Below, piece by piece: positions 9,902 to 59,441 of a DNA stretch of 64,000 bases; within the stretch, counting starts at the first letter, position 1, and each line of letters begins with the position of its first letter. The notes under the pieces were generated by a model that saw only the letters and a program-made list of their open reading frames with translations, ran no database searches and was not told the origin of the DNA. The translations under genes were made by a program, and so were the position numbers. Source of the stretch: Octopus vulgaris (Eukaryota); NCBI GenBank assembly GCA_951406725.2, contig OX597820.1, positions 24,738,001 to 24,802,000 of the forward strand. Direction: 5' to 3'.

Positions 9902-10148
9902 TAGGTAAATGAATTATCCTATGTTTATCGTCAGCATGGAAAATTCATTATCGCTTTGTTTACCATGTAGGCAATCATCGAAATTTTTGTTTGTCTTGTT
10001 GTCGAGAGAGGCTCCCTTTCTTTCCTGATGAGAAGATTGCATAATGCACCCTTTATTCCTATGGAATAAAAACATGCTGTCTTCGAAACATATGTCGAGA
10101 GTAAATGAATTTTGTTAACATCTTCGTTCGACTCCATTCTTTCATTTA

Positions 10149-10469: not shown

Positions 10470-10775
10470 TAAATTAGAGATAAAACCACTATTAGGCAAA
10501 TCAAACAATGAAAAACTTAAGCCAATACATAAAATTAATTAATTTATATTATTTTAAATATACAAACGTATTAAAAGTTTAATAAAAGATAATGAGTAAA
10601 ACACTACGATCGTTTCATGGCTGTCCAATTCGTAATAATTCGAGTTATGGTTACAGTCAATCTTCAGGTAATTGAAATATTTATCTTAGCGAGGTTTACT
10701 ATAAAATTGGATTCAATCCTAAATCTGATTTTTCCCTGTAAGTTTGGATTTATTCCCTAATATTTTATTATTAAT
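10463..10775 (-). mobile_element. Non-coding hammerhead-bearing (Penelope pLTR-like) element next to (TA)n
   Basis: Contains the hammerhead at 10602-10670. Both ends match segments of 52738-52875, one directly and one inverted. Confidence 0.7.
10602..10670 (-). ncRNA. Minimal type I hammerhead ribozyme motif
   Basis: Minus strand: tac CTGAAGA ttgactgt...acagccat GAAA cgatcg TA gtg. Helix II is tgactgt/acagcca with one mismatch, helix III is replaced by palindromic cgatcg, and helix I is short. Confidence 0.65.
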
Positions 10776-10904
10776 TTATATAATTTAAGATGCAGAAATA
10801 GAAAGTGACTGTAACTTCGAAGTCTCGCTGGGCACGCCCTTTAAACGAGGAAATAGCGAAGTTACGGACATGATATGTATATATATATAAATATATATAT
10901 ATAT

Positions 10905-11149: not shown

Positions 11150-11153
<4 letters not shown>

Positions 11154-12463
11154 ATAAATGGTGGGGTTGTGTTGACCGCACGTGGAGAAATGATAAGTAA
11201 GGAAAAATTTTTTTAAAAATGCAGAATGCTCAAATGAAAGAAAATTTTAATAAAATGAGAAGTTGATAAAATATATAAATATATATTTATTCAACCGGTT
11301 TTCGTCATTGTATGACTTGTCAAGAATATTTATGTTTTAAGAAGTTTTTTTAAAAATTAGAAAGGGGAAAAAAAGAAAAAGAAAATTGCATTGTTTTTTG
11401 TAAAAGAATAATGATAAAAATGTACAAAAATTAAAAAATAAGTTCTCCGATACATTGTGAGTTCGTTGTGTATCTTGAGTTTTATGGTTGTTTACGAAAA
11501 AATTTCCTTGAGGTGTTAAGATCCAAAGGGATTAAGAGCATGTGTTGTGTTGTGTTGTTAAATTCAGCATGTTTGCAGGACAGGAAGTAGTAGTAATTGT
11601 GGTCCTGGTTCTTCAGTTCCTGTGTTGTGAGTAAGGGGAGACAACTCTTTTGAGTTCTTCAATAAAACCCAAATTATAAAACTATCATTTTAGCTTCATT
11701 TGCATTATCTTTTTTATATAATTGCTTGTTAACTTAACTTTCAGATTTTAACACTTTATTTATATTATTTTCTAATAATATAAATCTGCATAGACAATTG
11801 CATTTCAAATTGTCATATCATTTATAATAAAAATGATAGTAATAACAACAATAGTAAAAATGATATTTAAAGAATATAAGTTTTAGCTTGAAGTGATGAA
11901 TGCATGGTATCTTTATATATTTGTGTTAGTCCATCCATGAAGAGTGAGGTAGAGAAAGGAAGTTTGATCAACGAGGAGTTTGCATATTAAGTTGTGTTTG
12001 GAATTTTTCAATAAAGAGATTCTCCTTGTTAATTCTCTCCTGTGTGGTGATCCCGTCTTTACATTGGTAGAAGGGGAATATATAGAATTTGGGGTTTAAG
12101 TCTTTAGCACATGAGTCTAAGTGGTCACTCAGTGGAATTTGTCGGTATTCCGGGAGATTTATTTGTTCTTTATGCACCGTTACTCGTTTACGTAACGGGA
12201 GACTCGTTTGTCCAACATAATTATGTTGGCAACCAGCGCATGTGAGAACGTAGATAAGGTTCTCGGAGGAACAGGAGAAGTTAGTCTTGATTTTAAACTT
12301 CGTACCTTGTTTGAAGGTAAATTCAGAGCCTTCAAGTAGAAAGGGGCAGGTTCCACAGTTTGAGCGTGCACATTTTTTTACTGTTGGGGGTGGATGTGGT
12401 GTGTGAAGTTTGGCATTTGTCAAGAGTTTTTTTAAAGATTTGTGTTGCATTTTGCATTTGAGG

Positions 12464-21285: not shown

Positions 21286-21969
21286 TATAACTTTTTTCTT
21301 CTGATGTAGACGTTGATCTTTCGGAATAATAGTTATGTTAAGAAATTTTGAACCTTAGGTTGGTAAATCATGGACTCGTTGGTCGGATCATTTGTCCTGT
21401 TGTCATCCTTCTGTATAAAGATGCTTAAGTGGTCGCTGAACCATTTGAGAGTTGTTTAAGTCTCTTTCAGTTACAGAAAACATTTGAGACTGCGCTAAGG
21501 ATATGGATACGTATTAGGATATTTATCCAAAAGTTTGGAACATTATTTGAACTTCTAGATAAGATTTTATGATTTGGACATTTTTTGGACATTTTTATGT
21601 CTAATGATCCAGTGACTCTCAATGCGCTTTCTTTAAGCATTTTCATTTCAGTTGAGGTTGTTGTTGCTGTTTGGTCTCTATTATATGCTGTAGGAGTTTA
21701 TTGAGAACCATAAAATTCATAATTTCTTTTGAAATTGTATAATTTTCCGGAACATTTGTCATTTGAATTGATGTAAAAGTCCATAAAAGTCCAGCACATT
21801 GGTATCATTTATTGAAACTGTAATCTTCAGAAAATTTATTTTGAGGTGTTTATTTTCTAGAAATAACTGTAGTCATTATTTTCATCACGAAGAATTCACT
21901 GCAATTTGGTAACGATTGTCGCTTTTTAGCACTCTTTGATTTTAGGAATGAGTTTCATATATATATATA

Positions 21970-22815
21970 TTAAATTAATAATAGAAGGGTAAAATTTATC
22001 AATTAAATTAATTAATTAACAATTTTACCAAGTAGATCGGTGCGTTAAAATAACATTTATAGGTAAAATTATCCACGTAATTATAATTAGAGTTCAGCTA
22101 ACTGCTTCATCACACACCGAAATTAGAAATAGGAGTTAAAAATTCCCTTTCTGCTACTATACGAATCACCGTGAGATTCGTATGGAGATTCGTATTGTAG
22201 CAGAAAGTGAAATTTTAACTCCTATTTCTAATTTCGGTATGTGGTGAAGCAGTTAACTGAACTCTAATTATAATTATGTGGATAACTTTACCTATAACTG
22301 TTATTTTAACGTACCGATCTACTTGGAAAAATTGTTAATTAATTAAATAATTAATTAAACTAATTAATAAATTTTACCCTTCTATTATTAATTTAAAATT
22401 ATAATTTACTCCATGATAGAATACTGCGGTTTTTCTGCGGTATTGCTCGTAGCATACACGTGGGTATAGAGTTTGAATAGTATGTAATATTCGACTGTGT
22501 AAATTTTGGAAGTGTTGGTTGGATATCTGTTACTTGATGACGCTCGATTGCGTGCATATTCAGTCATAGCACTTTCAAATTTTATTAAAATTGGAAATAT
22601 TATACTGAAGAGAGAAGTAAGTAAAATTTAAATTACTTTAATCTCGAAACGCGTATATAATTAATCCTGGTCGTATTGATTCATTGTTTTTTTCTCTTTC
22701 CTTCTTAAAAAAGTATGTTTACCGTTATGGAGATTCGTATAGTAGCAGAAAGGGAATTTTTAACTCCTATTTCTAATTTCGCTATGTGGTGAAGCAGCTA
22801 GCTGAACCCTAATTA

Positions 22816-22822
<7 letters not shown>
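21970..22822 (+). mobile_element. Hammerhead-bearing retrozyme-like / non-autonomous Penelope-like element (inverted arm + 545-nt unit + partial tandem copy) in (TA)n
   Basis: 21970-22167 is the reverse complement of about 22186-22396. 22181-22277 recurs directly at 22726-22822 (offset 545). Hammerhead at 22599-22661. (TA)n on both sides and no ORF. Confidence 0.85.
22599..22661 (+). ncRNA. Type I hammerhead ribozyme motif with a full catalytic core
   Basis: attata CTGAAGA gaga-agtaa...ttact-ttaa-tctc GAAA cgcg TA tataat. Helix I is attata/tataat, helix II is gaga/tctc plus agtaa/ttact, and palindromic ACGCGT replaces helix III. Predicted cut after GUA (22655). Confidence 0.85.
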
Positions 22823-22877
<55 letters not shown>

Positions 22878-23330: not shown

Positions 23331-26313
23331 TATATTTGTTTACATCGTTTTCAAGTATATCTATAACGACTCAGTTTTGCTTCTTTTTGTTTAATGCTGT
23401 TGCTGTTTAACTTTTTAAATATTTTTTTTTTTTACGGAGGAAGAAGTGAGAAGCAGATTTTGTCTTCGATTTTCCTCCTCTTTTTTCTTCTTTAGTTTAT
23501 TGTCACATTAAAACCACTGTAAAACTTCATACGTTTACGTCTTTTCTATATTCACTTGTATCCCTATTTAAAATGTGATAGCTCGGTTTAGATTCTGTTG
23601 GTCATATCACATATGTTCTACATGTGCCCGCGAAAATTCCACGGTTATTTTGAAAACTGTAAGATGTTGGAAGTTTATCGAGAACTATAAAATGCTTTAC
23701 TTTTTTTTGAAATTGTAAATTTTTCTGGAACACTTGGTCCTTGAGATGATGTAAACGTCCACTATGTAGGTAATATTAAAAGTGTAGACTTTGGCGGGAA
23801 CACCTTTGAAAACTGAACTTTTTATACACTTCCCACCTCTCATACCTTGGGTATTGTTATTTACTATTTTCACATTACGTCAAGGAATAAACAGCCTTAG
23901 GTATGGAACAACATTAAAGACATAATCTAGTTATATTATTATTTTGTTATTTATGACTACATTGTTAAAGCTTTAACACATCTTAATACATTTTATTACA
24001 TTCTTATTTTGATATCACAGAAAAGTTCATAAGGTAATACTTGAACCCGAAGTCCCACTGAACGAAGTGTAGCAACTAAAACTCTCAGTTGAAGATTTAA
24101 AACTAAAACGACTAAATATGTCAGTTATACAGCTATGGCTATATTGTGAAAATGTTCGATTCGTTAACATTTGGTTCTAGGTTCGGTGCCGAAGCAAAGC
24201 ATTTTGAGTGTTTTCTGTAACGTAGTGTGCACTAACCTTTTGAGTAAAATTTAATCAGCAGGAACAAAATGGAAGCCCATCGCGTCTATGCATGTGTGTG
24301 TGTGTGTTTGTTTAGGCATGTAAGTGTGTGTGTATGTGTGTGTGTTTATGTATCTATGTATGTATGTAAGTGTGTGTGTATGTGTGTATGTGTATGTGTG
24401 TGTATGCGTGTGTATGTATGTGTGCGAGTCTGTGTGTACATGTGTTTGTGTGTGTTTGTGGGTGGGTGTGTATGTGTATGTATCTGTGTGTGTCTGTGTG
24501 TTTGTGTATATGATGTGCAGCGCGTAGCATAGAGGTAAAAAAGCCAAACTTGCAATCTTCAATTAAGGTCCCTCCGAAGGGTCCCTGGAGTAACATTACC
24601 TCGGCAGGGTGCGTAGCTCGGAGATCAGGGAATCTCTCCCATGTCCAGGCGTTGCTTCTCTGCATTGAGACGTCACAACCCCATGACAACAGACATGAGG
24701 TTAGAATACCACAGGAAAGGACAGCAAGACAGGTTCTTCAAGCCGCGTCATCTGGCCGGAGATCTTGAAATAGACCAAGAACGAAATGGGTGGGGAATAT
24801 CCAGACTCTCAGCTGGTCACACTTGGGAATCCAGCCGGAAAATGTAATGATGGGTGCTTTTGATAGGGCCCTAACGAAGAGGTGCTCGAGGACGCCACCC
24901 CTTACTACCCTCCTAGGAATAGTGGGCGGAGATAGGTGGATGACGGGATCCCAATTTCGTTTTGATTATAAGCATATAGTGAGGTGGAAGTACTCAAATG
25001 GACACGAGGAACAAGGTGTATAATTGATGTTTCAACAACGTGCGCACACCCGCACGTACACACTCGCACAGACACACACACTCACTCACACACACACACA
25101 CACGCGCGCGCGGGAACATAAAACTTTCATTTAATCATTTCTACAACTGTTTCCATGAACCAGGAGAAACCATTGTCAGCTCTATAATAATTACATAATG
25201 AATTAACTTATCTGTAGAATGTGATGTGAAAGTAATTTCGTAAGGAACGGTTTTGAAATAGGAAAATCAAAACACCGATTCTGTTATAAATATAACATCA
25301 AAAAAGAATATAAAAATAATAAGGGGGAAAATGAAATATGAATATGAAATATTTGTTGTTTGTCTTGTTTTTGTGTTTAGTCCTAGGTCCGTTAGCCGAA
25401 AATGTTAACGTCGTAGACAGATTTGTTTCCCCTGAGCGATATATTGTACACAGTGCTTCTGTAGAGGCTTGCTTTAAAACTAGCAGTGATAGAACTTTGG
25501 GTATTGTGTAAAAGTTGTTTTGCACTAATCAAATCGACAGATCTCTGTTTACAGACGATCTAGCAATGACACTCCCAGCTTATTTCTTCCGGTGTATTGT
25601 ATCTAGGATATTATTATGTCAAGTTTCCTTCCATTTTGTATGACGATGACTGCGTCAGACCAAACGATCACGAATAAAGCTGCCAAATTCGTACGAATGT
25701 ATAGAAATAAATGCCTAAATTTAGTCAGGCAAGTCATGAAACTTTCAAATGGTTGCTTTAATAATTATAATTTTCAAGTAATAATTGCAGCTTCCAACAT
25801 GATTAAAGATGGACGGAGGAATTATAGGTTTACGTTCTTCCCAGAATTTTAGAATAGATTTTCTTTCTATTTCTAACATACCTGTCTGTAGAACATCATT
25901 GTGATGCTATCCACCAAATAGCTCCCATACTTTTCTTTTTCTTTCAGTACAGTGTTTTCATGTGCTAGGTACAGACTATATCTATTCTAAAATATTAATA
26001 TTTATCGGTCCCAGTTCTTAATATTTATCCATCTAAGTCCTTTATATGCTACCTCTTTTACCGGCTCCAGAAGGAAGAAATGTGAAGTCGATTCGGAGCA
26101 AAAGGACAAATTGAACAAAACCGAATACTAATTGCTGTTATTCTCCCATCATTATGTGTATGTATGTATACTTGCATGCTTGAATGTATTGTATGTATGT
26201 ATGTATATATGTATGCATGCATGTATGTATGCATGTAGGTAGCAACTTCGAAGTAACAGTCAATACATACATATATGTATATATAAACATATATATATAT
26301 GTTTATATATACA

Positions 26314-26610: not shown

Positions 26611-26793
26611 TACGCAAATGTGTGTGTGTGTGTGTGTGTGTGTATACAAACAAAATTTTTTTTCATATATACAAACATAAATATATATATATAAATATAA
26701 CATACATACATGCACGCATACATACCTTGTGTTACATAGGAATTAACTGTTTCAGTCTAATGTACTAATACTTTTTTCTCTTCTATTTTGTAG

Positions 26794-27826
26794 AGAACTG
26801 AGGCTGAGCCTTGAATCCAGTGGAGAAATACTGGATTATACCCAAGACAGCAGCAATTATACTTTCCAAATATTAAATTTAGTCAAAGACCTAAAAGGGA
26901 CAAAAATATGGAAATTTGTTGGAGCAGTCGATAATTTCTATGTAAATTTAAGCACGGTGGCTGAACTTCCGGGTCGGCGGGAGAATGCTACGCACCGTTT
27001 TCGCAAACTTTATAGCATCATTACCAAAGTTTCACCACCATTTATCATGCAAAAAGAGGCCTTTTCCGAAGATGGTGACTGCTATTCGTACGTGCCATGT
27101 GTTCAGGTAGCCAATGAAAGTGATGTTGATAATGCATTCGAAGACTACTTGCTTACTAATCGATACGATCATGACAAATTCAGTGTTTCTTGCTGCACAG
27201 GAGTGACCATAGATATCTTGGTCAAACTGGCGACGGACATGGAATTTGATTTCATCCTCTTCTTTCTCAAAGAACCTTTCGATGGAAACTACACGTATGA
27301 TTCAGGAAGTTGGAATGACACGTTAATGTACCTGGAAGATGACAGAGTCGATATAGTGGCAGGGCCGCTCAGTATAACAGTAGAACGGGTAAGGTATATC
27401 ACATTCACTGAGGTGTATTTTTACACTGGCTTCTCCATGATTACCATGAAGCGAGAGCGTGAAACTTCCATGGACGCCTTTCTAATGCCTTTTTCCGTGG
27501 AGGTATGGATCGGCATAGCGATAAGTGCCACAGTTACTGCCGTAGCAACATCATTGTTCGAGTGGAACAGTCCATTTGGACTCAACCCTAAGGGGAGAAA
27601 ACGGGAGCGCAACTATACCCTTGGTTCAGCACTCACTATGGTTTATTCAGTGCTTTTTGGTCATATTGTGCGCACCAAATCCCCTAAAAGTTGGCCAGGA
27701 AAAGTACTTCAGAACTTCTGGGCAGGTCTTGCAATTTTTATGATTGCAAGTTACACTGCTAATTTAGCTGCATACCTGGCAGGCCGCTCCGAGCAGTCGG
27801 ATTTACTAAACATAAATGACGAACGG
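26794..27826 (+). CDS. GRIN3A: Internal coding exon of an ionotropic glutamate receptor, NMDA GluN3-like (end of ATD, S1, M1, M2 pore loop, M3)
   Basis: Acceptor ttttttctcttctattttgtag| at 26793 and donor gaacgg|gtaagt at 27827. The frame is open from ELRLSLESSGE... to ...DLLNINDER. Motifs include CCTGVTIDIL, GSWND, AGPLSITVER, TEVYFYTGFS, FEWNSPFGLNPKGR, LFGHIVRTKSPKSWPGKVLQNFWA and SYTANLAAY. These match the recalled GluN3A-type pattern (FEWKSPFG..PKGR, LFGRT..IKPPKCWTG, TYTANLAA). The symbol marks the class, not proven one-to-one orthology. Confidence 0.95.
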
Positions 27827-28524
27827 GTAAGTAACTTTTTATACTTTCTATGTCTCTCAACCATACTCCATAAAAACTAAAAAAAAAAAAGCTTCCACAT
27901 ATTCACCAGCTTCTGTAAAAAAAAATTCTATACTCTCTTCTCCAATCTAAAATGTCCCATCACAGACTATTTTTGAACTTCATTTTCTCACTGTGAATTT
28001 AATACCTATAAATACAAAGGTTTCAAAGCTCCATATTACTCATCTGGATTCATAAATTTTAAATAGTTTTACCGTTTCTATCGATATTCTTTAATTTTTG
28101 TATCTGCATGTGGTAGGATCTGAAGAAAGTCATGGCCATTTCAATGTGTACATTTCTTATTAAATACCATCCCTCCACTTAACAACAAGAAAACGCGAAT
28201 AAAGCACTCGAGATATAACGAAATAAACAAGTAAACAGATAAACACTCTCACTTCTGGTCCATAGGTCTGCTGTCTTCTCTCTATGCATTTTCTTTGGGT
28301 GGAGGTGGCTCTTCACCCCTCGTAGTCCTCATCTCGCACCCTCTCATCACCCTTGTTGTGTACAACCCATCAGGCTTCCACAGTAATTAACATGTCCATT
28401 CTTTTTTTCCGTTTCCACAACACTGATGCTCTTGAATTCCCTCGCCTGCATATACCTTTCTCGGGGATATTGACTCACGAAGTTCTCAAACTCACCGAAC
28501 TACGAAAGCCTTCAAAGGGCACAT

Positions 28525-57672: not shown

Positions 57673-57750
57673 TATATCCGCTGATGAGAACTTCGCCTGG
57701 CAAATTATTTTACTTGATAATTAAAGTTCGAAACCGGAGGTCCAGATGTA
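57673..57750 (+). ncRNA. Type I hammerhead ribozyme motif (copy 1)
   Basis: tatatccg CTGATGA gaactt...aagttc GAAA cc-gga-gg TC cagatgta. Helix II is gaactt/aagttc, helix III is cc/gg, and helix I has one mismatch. GUC cut site after 57742. Confidence 0.8.
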
Positions 57751-58126
57751 AAACATGGTAAATGTTTTTATTTTTTATTTCCTTCGAAATTGCTTTTAAC
57801 TGTGATGTGGACTTTTTGACTGTTCTTTCTAGTATGATAGGCAACCTGTTAAGACTCGCTTCTTTGTGTTTAAATGTACACAATTTTTATATGAAAAATA
57901 TGTCTATTGACTTTGTATACATACTAGGCCACTGGTAGAAGAAACTTCTACAATTTCCCCTACCCTATATCCATTTTAAGAAATGATATTAGCAATTTCT
58001 GAAGTTTAATCAGAATTTTTATTTGCTGCCGATTCAATCTGCGCTTGCGCGGATGATTCGAAAAATTATAACATATAAGGATGGACACGTGTTATTTGGT
58101 CTCTAATTTATATGTTAATGTTTTGG

Positions 58127-58204
58127 CGTATCAGCTGATGAGAACATCACCATGCCAATTATTTTATTTGCTAATTAAGGTTCGAAACCTGAGGTCCGGC
58201 TGTA
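58127..58204 (+). ncRNA. Type I hammerhead ribozyme motif (copy 2)
   Basis: cag CTGATGA gaac...gttc GAAA cc-tga-gg TC cggctgta. The core is intact but helix I is degenerate. GUC site after 58196. Confidence 0.7.
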
Positions 58205-58617
58205 AAACATGGTGAATATTATTTTTCATTCCCTGCGAAATTGCTCTTAAGTGTGGTTTGGACATTTTGACTGCTCTTTCTAGTATGTTAGGCAACCTGT
58301 TAAGGCTCGCATCTTTGTGTTTAAATGTACACTAATTTATATATTCATATACATGCATATATATATATATATATATATATATGCATGTATATGAATATAT
58401 AAATGCATATATATATATATATATATTACATTATATAAGGGCTTAGTAAAATAAATTACTTTGCCACATACTGAACTCATTAGAAATAGCAGCTAAAAAA
58501 ATTTTTTTAACTATTTCTAATACTTAAAGAAAATCTCTCTCATATAGTGTTTGCTCAAGTCAACTCACGAAGGTATGGGGGTAAAAACATTAAAAAGTCA
58601 CAAATGCAAAGGTTATT

Positions 58618-58669
58618 TGAGAACGTACGTTTCTAGATTAGTCAAATCGACATTTCTTTCGTCAGCTCA
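58618..58669 (-). ncRNA. Minimal type I hammerhead ribozyme motif
   Basis: Minus strand: tgag CTGACGA a-aga-aat-gtc-gattt-gac-taa-tct-a GAAA cgtacg TT ctca. Helix I is tgag/ctca, the helix III stub is palindromic (aacgtacgtt), and the site is GUU. Confidence 0.78.
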
Positions 58670-59175
58670 GAACTCCTTGATTCGGATTTGGGAACACTGA
58701 AAGTGGGAGCATACCCTTTTGGCTTCTTATCACTTCCGGAGATCTGCTCGAACTATCAGTGCTACCAAATTCAAAATATGCAAGCGAAGAATTTCTGCTC
58801 TCCCCTTTCCACCAGCGTGGGTTAAAATTGGTAAACACTATGTTTTATCGGTACAAACCGAAGCATTAAATAGAGAGAAATGAATTATAATTTCAACAAT
58901 TGAGGGTAAAATTAATTAATTATTAATCGATTTCACCAAGTATTCAGTATGTAAAGGGACCATTTAAGGCGAATTCAAATTATTACATTATATAAGGGCT
59001 TAGTAAAATAAATTACTTTGCCACATACTGAACTCATTAGAAATAGCAGCTAAAAAAAATTTTTTTAACTATTTCTAATACTTAAAGAAAATCTCTCTCA
59101 TATAGTGTTTGCTCAAGTCAACTCACGAAGGTATGGGGGTAAAAACATTAAAAAGTCACAAATGCAAAGGTTATT

Positions 59176-59227
59176 TGAGAACGTACGTTTCTAGATTAGT
59201 CAAATCGACATTTCTTTCGTCAGCTCA
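59176..59227 (-). ncRNA. Minimal type I hammerhead ribozyme motif (identical second copy)
   Basis: Identical to 58618-58669, offset 558. Confidence 0.78.
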
Positions 59228-59398
59228 GAACTCCTTGATTCGGATTTGGGAACACTGAAAGTGGGAGCATACCCTTTTGGCTTCTTATCTAAGCCCTTAT
59301 ATAATGTAATAATTTGAATTCGCCTTAAATGGTCCCTTTACATACTGAATACTTGGTGAAATTGATTAATAATTAATTAATTTTACCCTCAATTGTTG

Positions 59399-59441
<43 letters not shown>

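Follow-up and report, generated by a model that had tools for sequence, protein, structure and literature searches.

The question raised by positions 21970-22822 of the 64,000-nt stretch of Octopus vulgaris DNA analysed here (the window) is what kind of element combines a hammerhead ribozyme, an inverted arm and a partial tandem repeat inside a TA tract, and how it was copied. This segment is an old, decayed genomic copy of a short, non-coding, hammerhead-bearing repeat. In our preferred reading, to which we give a probability of about 0.7, the 545-nt repeat lies in a TA tract as two head-to-head arms, each stopping at one of two fixed sites. Its likely origin is copying from RNA by the reverse transcriptase (RT)/endonuclease of a Penelope-like element (PLE), which would bind a predicted structure of about 190 nt shared between families.

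The features are collected in Table 1, where unit positions are counted from the hammerhead cut. The foldback reported by the initial annotation aligns as two arms of 176 nt with 90% identity (21995-22170/22184-22359) around a 13-nt spacer, and further as 21967-22018/22348-22399 with 92% identity. Its 545-nt periodicity was also recovered (22181-22277 against 22726-22822, 93% identity across 97 nt), as was the (TA)n surrounding, which is present at both flanks of this copy, a member of what we call family A. The GC content of the region is 0.28 and the family A consensus has 544 nt. The unit is low in GC, short, non-coding and without LTR, as a retrozyme should be (PBS and PPT lie outside this check). 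An ORF with RT and GIY-YIG is absent from the family A insertion and units, so the family A unit is not an autonomous PLE. Compared pairwise, the window copy's three segments disagree at 6-7 of ~93 positions, which is what a single old, inert insertion would show. Flanking the element at 21720-21783 and 23698-23761 is a 64-nt direct repeat (80%); it is part of older host-region sequence, and no ORF accounts for it.

Table 1. Features of the family A insertion and its context in the window.
Feature	Position	Strand	Basis
Left (TA)n target tract	21957..21970	.	sequence
Inverted 5'-truncated arm, unit ~74 to ~290; stops at end site 2 and holds a second module copy	21970..22170	-	
Head-to-head junction, 13-nt spacer with short duplication of arm start	22171..22183	.	
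Direct arm, 642 nt (1.18 repeats of 545 nt); begins at unit 71 and runs once round to unit ~166, end site 1	22181..22822	+	
Conserved module of ~190-200 nt with both end sites	22195..22402	+	
P1, predicted hairpin	~22202-22229	+	
P2, predicted long-range helix enclosing hairpin P2a, end site 1 and hairpin P2b	22234-22241 with 22310-22317	+	
End site 1	~22272-22277	+	
P3, predicted hairpin; the 'terminus' of the initial annotation, antisense at 21986-22034	22325..22378	+	
End site 2	~22396-22402	+	
Type I hammerhead, the only one in the family A insertion; predicted cut after A22655	22599..22661	+	
pLTR-like partial tandem, running up to end site 1	22726..22822	+	
Right (TA)28 target tract	22820..22875	.	
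Exon of NMDA-3A-like receptor gene; the ~34-kb intron upstream of it holds the element (context)	26777..27838	+	
Family B copy, 557-nt period, hammerhead ~58614-58676 (- strand), inverted arm 59289-59406; same module and two-end anatomy	58426..59406	-	

The ribozyme seen by the initial annotation was found on the plus strand with stem I at 22599-22604/22656-22661 (6 bp), CUGAAGA at 22605-22611, stem II at 22612-22615/22642-22645 (4 bp), GAAA at 22646-22649 and a stem III that is a 2-bp palindrome; the core CUGANGA / GAAA / NUH and the three stems of a type I hammerhead are all present. A descriptor search of the window gave three matches, this one among them, and 20 simulated Markov-1 windows gave none with stem II of at least 4 bp and stem I of at least 6 bp. 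RNAfold recovered stems I-III in this region with z -2.3, 8 of 200 shuffles being equally good. The Rfam hammerhead models, a search that the initial annotation had suggested, gave no match at E<=10 in 22400-22800, and among the 150 matches listed of 335 for the whole window there were only repeat-driven miRNA/snoRNA matches. The helix covariation that it had proposed to look for is present, with compensatory changes in 8 of 12 pairs over seven sequences of six families (0/500 shuffles). Stem I varies within family A too (T-A/T·G/C-G), and the core is kept in 22 of 30 family A copies, including the one in the window. Across families the stem II loops measure 15-70 nt; A·A replaces G10.1-C11.1 in families B, E and F, and the core of family E is UUGAUAA (U3/A8; loci L133-L162), as in the autonomous PLE N3 (L109-L131). 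An 'active' copy in the sense of Li 2026 has two consecutive complete hammerheads; this insertion has one, which speaks of the copy and not of the family, and with a single hammerhead the window copy cannot release a monomer. The 5' ends of 34 of 110 arms fall within the first 80 nt past the cut (14% expected if uniform), and 22 against 9 lie on either side of it, both counts being inflated by short arms and query choice; as a footprint of cleavage this clustering is weak at best.

Our searches covered the 2.8-Gb genome in 227 contigs. A one-unit query of family A gave 1400 first-look candidates, of which the best 40 were scored, and a query with the second element of the window, family B, gave 1676; these counts are not copy numbers, and families may overlap in them. 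The 30 family A loci have a mean identity of 94.4% to their consensus, and the 26 family B loci (after four duplicates were dropped) 98.1%. In family A, CpG sites diverge by 14% against 5% elsewhere, a decay that fits inert copies. Contigs of three presumed-RNA runs and one run of unstated kind cover the family, giving neither ends nor strand. Units read out for seven families are 494-618 nt long, each with a type I hammerhead, and no small ORF common to the units compared was found. Family A forms partial tandems, and B, E and F also multi-unit arrays, with short periods of 554 nt in E and ~616-618 nt in F. Family F (L163-L192) has a 70-nt AT-rich stem II loop, arrays of five or more units and many identical copies (99%), and is so young that its partner enzyme must have been active recently in this genome. 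The period of the second element, previously given as 558 nt, is 557 nt in the window copy. It adjoins a 455-nt tandem at 57676-58344 (+) that contains two type I hammerheads and has a relative in L245:1880-2600; this tandem may belong to the module superfamily as a distant member, although the module profile that matched it included it, and a profile without it missed it. Two more hammerhead-bearing repeat ends with palindromic stem III, belonging to other families, lie at 10025-10096 (+) and about 10470-10870 (-).

The initial annotation had also noted that the terminus at 21986-22034 resembles 58900-58942 of the second element, and had proposed a terminal module common to two families. The likeness holds (score 40, 0/1000 shuffles) and narrowly clears an AT-rich control, the best of 553 AT-rich 60-mers of the window scoring 37. 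The statement that the rest of the two elements differs stands for the 5' part (309/1000 shuffles) and the spacer after end 2 (718/1000), but not for a second upstream block (unit 95-161) and the whole tail between the ends, which are common as well (0/1000 shuffles each). The likeness of the two families extends from unit ~95 to end 2 and is confined to that stretch. The 'terminus' is only the last hairpin (P3) of the module, read antisense; the module itself is larger than claimed, covering about 190 nt on the ribozyme strand, spanning both 3' ends and occurring in at least 10 families. Further families, set in unrelated flanks, were detected with a profile of the A/B-like region, and clustering at 84% grouped 192 full-length hits from 288 sequences into 11 clusters; cluster H belongs to the profile training set, and family L adds one more family. 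Among seven families, the modules were more alike than in any of 200 shuffles for 20 of the 21 family pairs, whereas only 5/21 pairs reached this in the 5' part and 3/21 in the spacer.

Within the spacer, a loosely kept CACGTGG-like block occurs at ~22455-22470 and in the homologous spacers of B-G and I, ~60 nt past end 2 and often with a G-rich block after it; it is possibly a promoter. Palindromes like it flank the ORF start of the autonomous PLE N1 and of the 811-aa family. The idea of a telomere template was rejected: AACCCTAA is found at end 1 in A and L and is not kept in other families.

The module coincides with the places where the copies end. The outer 3' ends of family A fall at unit ~161-173 or ~277-292 in 36 of 41 cases, two sites about 125 nt apart, and those of family B at ~192-204 or ~291-295 in all 44; the queries ended at site 1 (A, B) or spanned both sites (E, F), and the loci were picked by best match to the query, both of which bias these end counts. 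TA flanks the outer 3' ends in 142 of 160 cases (A 31/41, B 44/44, E 36/40, F 31/35), and the tails in the module families measure 97-125 nt. The 5' ends and inversion points of A, B, E and F differ from copy to copy. Among inverted copies, site 1 is paired with site 2 in 40 of 52 (B 18/18, E 11/12, A 7/11, F 4/11), and at most one has both arms near one and the same site; family F fits this two-end rule poorly. The window copy obeys it, with its inverted arm running to site 2 and its direct arm to site 1. The partial tandem, the inverted truncated arm, the tail on one end and the (TA)n target of these copies are a PLE-type insertion signature.

Single-sequence folds gave P1, P2 and P3 in four of six families (A, B, D, F; P3 is short in F); C and E fold otherwise alone, and a shorter stretch of the E consensus yields P2 and P3. 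Covariation of the module helices, another of the checks proposed earlier, came out modest. On a sequence-only alignment of nine families, with the helices taken from family C, itself among those aligned, 87% of the cells are paired against 40-50% in slid controls, and 9 of 32 pairs show a compensatory change, values matched by 3 of 500 shuffles of a kind that related sequences can beat. RNAalifold, in turn, gave no structure on all 12 sequences, and P1/P2/P3 or P1/P2 only on nine-sequence sets. On the hammerhead strand, G·U cells outnumber A·C cells by 30 to 5, an excess that points to RNA. Fold energy clearly favours the sense strand in only three of seven families, A, E, F and I not being among them. 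Whole units are strongly self-paired, with circular-fold z of -9.7 and -6.1.

These observations are best accommodated by a model in which the module is likely the signal recognised by a Penelope-type RT/endonuclease. Read-through transcription of tandem copies would give a multimeric RNA, which the hammerhead would cut once per unit. Given its 2-bp palindromic stem III, the ribozyme would probably act as a dimer, and the monomers may be circularised. The PLE protein would bind P1-P2-P3 and nick both (TA)n strands. One nick would prime cDNA at site 1, which lies inside the P2 loop and is preceded by P2a and an ACCCU-like motif; the other would prime it at site 2, preceded by P3 and a motif of similar kind. 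AU-rich ends, which can pair with TA, would help. The two variably truncated cDNAs would then be joined head to head. For arms exceeding one unit, the template would have to be an uncut multimer or a circle; 66 of 110 arms cross the cut. PAc inserts in vitro without its hammerhead according to PMC11167929, so cleavage may be incidental. In the same paper the PLE tail corresponds to the sequence lying between two places in a stem-loop at which the RT starts, and in vitro the two DNA strands are each cut and extended.

Which PLE could have supplied the enzyme? Intact RT+GIY-YIG frames are many in the genome and belong to a Neptune-like group, recognised by its CX2-5CxxC linker, and to a Hydra-like clade, assigned from motifs by comparison with PMC8557442, Pfam detecting no RT there. 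The search took in these two groups, with Naiad and Penelope/Poseidon left out, and the Neptune-like families covered were N1 (753-aa frame), N3 (781 aa), a 776-aa, an 811-aa and several older ones. A module in the PLE's own 3' end was found in none of 117 Neptune-type loci (550 kb) and in none of the Hydra-type loci (sets of 50 and 60, with 20 in common). Module matches in L063, L086, L098, L110, L129, L279 and L283 were judged by eye to be separate insertions past TA tracts, and those in L206, L210 and L380 likewise from TA position only; the detailed inspection did not cover the matches in L246 and L073/L094. Local alignments of PLE termini to the module were not convincing, with one of 45 at 0/100 shuffles (N3 against family G, z 2.8) and Hydra z <=1.8, and the Hydra-like consensus folds without P2. 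Family G was also considered as an ORF-linked PLE end and rejected, as it is a short closed unit; no PLE ORF linked to G or L loci was seen.

The Hydra-like clade (L268-L287, L332-L401) has 14012 candidates, a 2.5-kb 3' UTR, a young subfamily with 99% identity and similar motifs ~55 nt ahead of each end. A 5'-truncated, very young Neptune-like PLE lies in the window itself at 11152-12460 (-); it belongs to a group with 19035 candidates, 99% protein identity, 753-aa frames and a ~48-nt tail, and carries a variant hammerhead-like motif in its 3' UTR. The two ends of N1 are ~48 nt apart, and the tails of the autonomous PLEs measure ~48 nt in N1, ~43 nt in the 811-aa family and ~170 nt in the Hydra-like clade. 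As in the module families, the Hydra-like family has a long tail and, ~200 nt ahead of end 1, a canonical hammerhead whose stem III is palindromic, and its inverted copies pair both ends (5/5). A PLE outside our sample is a realistic partner at somewhat less than even odds. The Hydra-like clade, with its long tail and similar geometry and no sequence match, is a tentative candidate slightly behind it, and one of the sampled Neptune-like PLEs is a doubtful one.

We also consider, as a bolder and rather unlikely proposal, that the families make up a superfamily of hammerhead RNA parasites, old and evolving on its own, which keeps a multi-helix RT 'origin' of its own. Its two sites would allow the halves of an RT dimer to prime one strand each, and PLE enzymes would be captured by shape, without sequence similarity to the ends of a donor. 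If true, a cis-acting RNA would thereby be defined for a telomerase-related RT, and TA-targeted insertion would have a minimal template.

The strongest rival keeps the same element and gives the module another job, such as RNA stability or circularisation, host-protein binding or an internal promoter, while the PLE would start at AU-rich spots through TA pairing and take no account of the structure. It would account for the absence of the module from any autonomous element among the sampled PLEs, for the AU-rich character of both end sites, which could pair with TA, and for strongly self-paired units, as described for retrozyme circles in PMC7229834. However, conservation peaks exactly over the stretch that holds both end sites, each of which comes after a hairpin and a CCCU-like motif, and many other AU-rich sites in the unit go unused as ends. 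For a snRNA-type promoter, moreover, the ATCAGT core, the motif upstream of most U2 genes, is absent from the sense strand of the eight units checked. We regard this rival as improbable. The U2 snRNA genes themselves (L318-L331) have several upstream types, with ATCAGT at about -60 in three of them and unrelated upstream sequence in 2 of 14 genes.

That a long autonomous PLE has left here no more than its 5'-truncated 3' end, consisting of pLTR and tail, is largely refuted and very unlikely. Truncation with the same anatomy is common among PLE copies according to PMC8557442, and the best 40 candidates per search were scored, but the unit closes on itself: past end 2 come the hammerhead and then the module again, at the 545-nt period and in several copies. 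The sister families E and F form short-period arrays, and no PLE ORF was seen linked to the G and L loci either.

Two further explanations are hardly credible. A DNA-level foldback, MITE-like element or satellite unit with a chance hammerhead would fit the long inverted repeat, the AT-richness and the TA flanks, but the inversion point varies, and in each family 7-19 copies lack an inversion altogether, which leaves neither fixed terminal inverted repeats nor a constant TSD across copies; the hammerhead also covaries across families, and the pairing shows the G·U strand bias. A host-kept intronic ribozyme and foldback regulating the NMDA-3A-like transcript would agree with the intact core of the window copy and with its strand, which is that of the receptor gene, as the initial annotation observed: the element lies in sense within the intron, the previous exon is at G000:C7:24730293-24730934, 7 kb ahead of the window, and the exon in the window matches octopus-labelled NMDA-3A-like proteins. 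Against this, 22/30 copies keep the core anyway, the differences between the segments of the window copy show that nothing is homogenising the foldback, the window's family B copy lies antisense, and with thousands of genome-wide candidates an intronic match is expected. The sense position is probably due to chance, and nothing points to function.

The reading that we prefer, PLE copying from a recognised RNA structure, bears on two questions, namely which RNA signal PLE RTs recognise and whether PLEs mobilise animal retrozymes. The module offers a concrete, testable candidate for such a signal, with helices and positions named for the published in vitro PLE assay, and at least 10 diverged families keeping one structure round two start sites amount to a natural mutational scan. 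Literature searches gave no paper on the module or superfamily; subscription papers and supplements lay outside them, and the supplements of PMC8557442 and of the preprint 10.64898/2026.07.22.740005 may bear on tail lengths.

Among known systems, EN+ PLEs (PMC8557442, PMC3846280, PMC11167929) share the partial tandem, the inverted 5'-truncated arm, a tail on one end only, an AT-rich or (TA)n target and a hammerhead upstream of the ends; the (TA)n target is found as in Neptune, Naiad and Hydra PLEs. Unlike them, the families described here have no ORF, their tails measure 97-125 nt against 30-40 nt in print, and their start sites lie in a multi-helix module kept across families rather than at the ORF start of one family. 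The non-autonomous Chlamys PLEs, such as MRC1 (PMC8557442), are likewise short, with pLTRs and head-to-tail copies, but they resemble an autonomous family at the 3' end, whereas the families here match none of those sampled and carry a canonical hammerhead. The minimal type I hammerheads of PLEs (Cervera and de la Pena 2014, PMC4209133) have the same 6-bp helix I, the same 4-bp helix II and a helix III that is likewise short and palindromic, for which dimerisation is predicted to be needed, and differ from ours in the 15-70-nt stem II loops, the A·A of B, E and F and the U3/A8 core of E.

Metazoan non-LTR retrozymes (Cervera and de la Pena 2020, PMC7229834; Li, Clavereau and Pollet 2026, 10.64898/2026.07.22.740005) also have a non-coding low-GC unit, one type I hammerhead and tandem copies, and their mobilisation by PLEs has been proposed in these accounts as likely but unproven. 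The units here, about 494-620 nt, exceed the 150-450 nt of PMC7229834 and lie within the 51-972 nt of 10.64898/2026.07.22.740005; in (TA)n, our families occur mainly as dispersed 1-1.5-mers that have inverted arms. Their two fixed end sites, and the structured module that they have in common, do not appear in the parts of these two accounts that were consulted. In Xenopus, 24 of 57 retrozyme families match known elements, and 21 of 22 matched are PLEs (10.64898/2026.07.22.740005), whereas here the pLTR matched none of the autonomous PLEs sampled. By analogy, the element would behave as a metazoan non-LTR retrozyme that a PLE mobilises. The retrozyme or non-autonomous PLE kind is itself already known, and what is new here is the structured module common to families.
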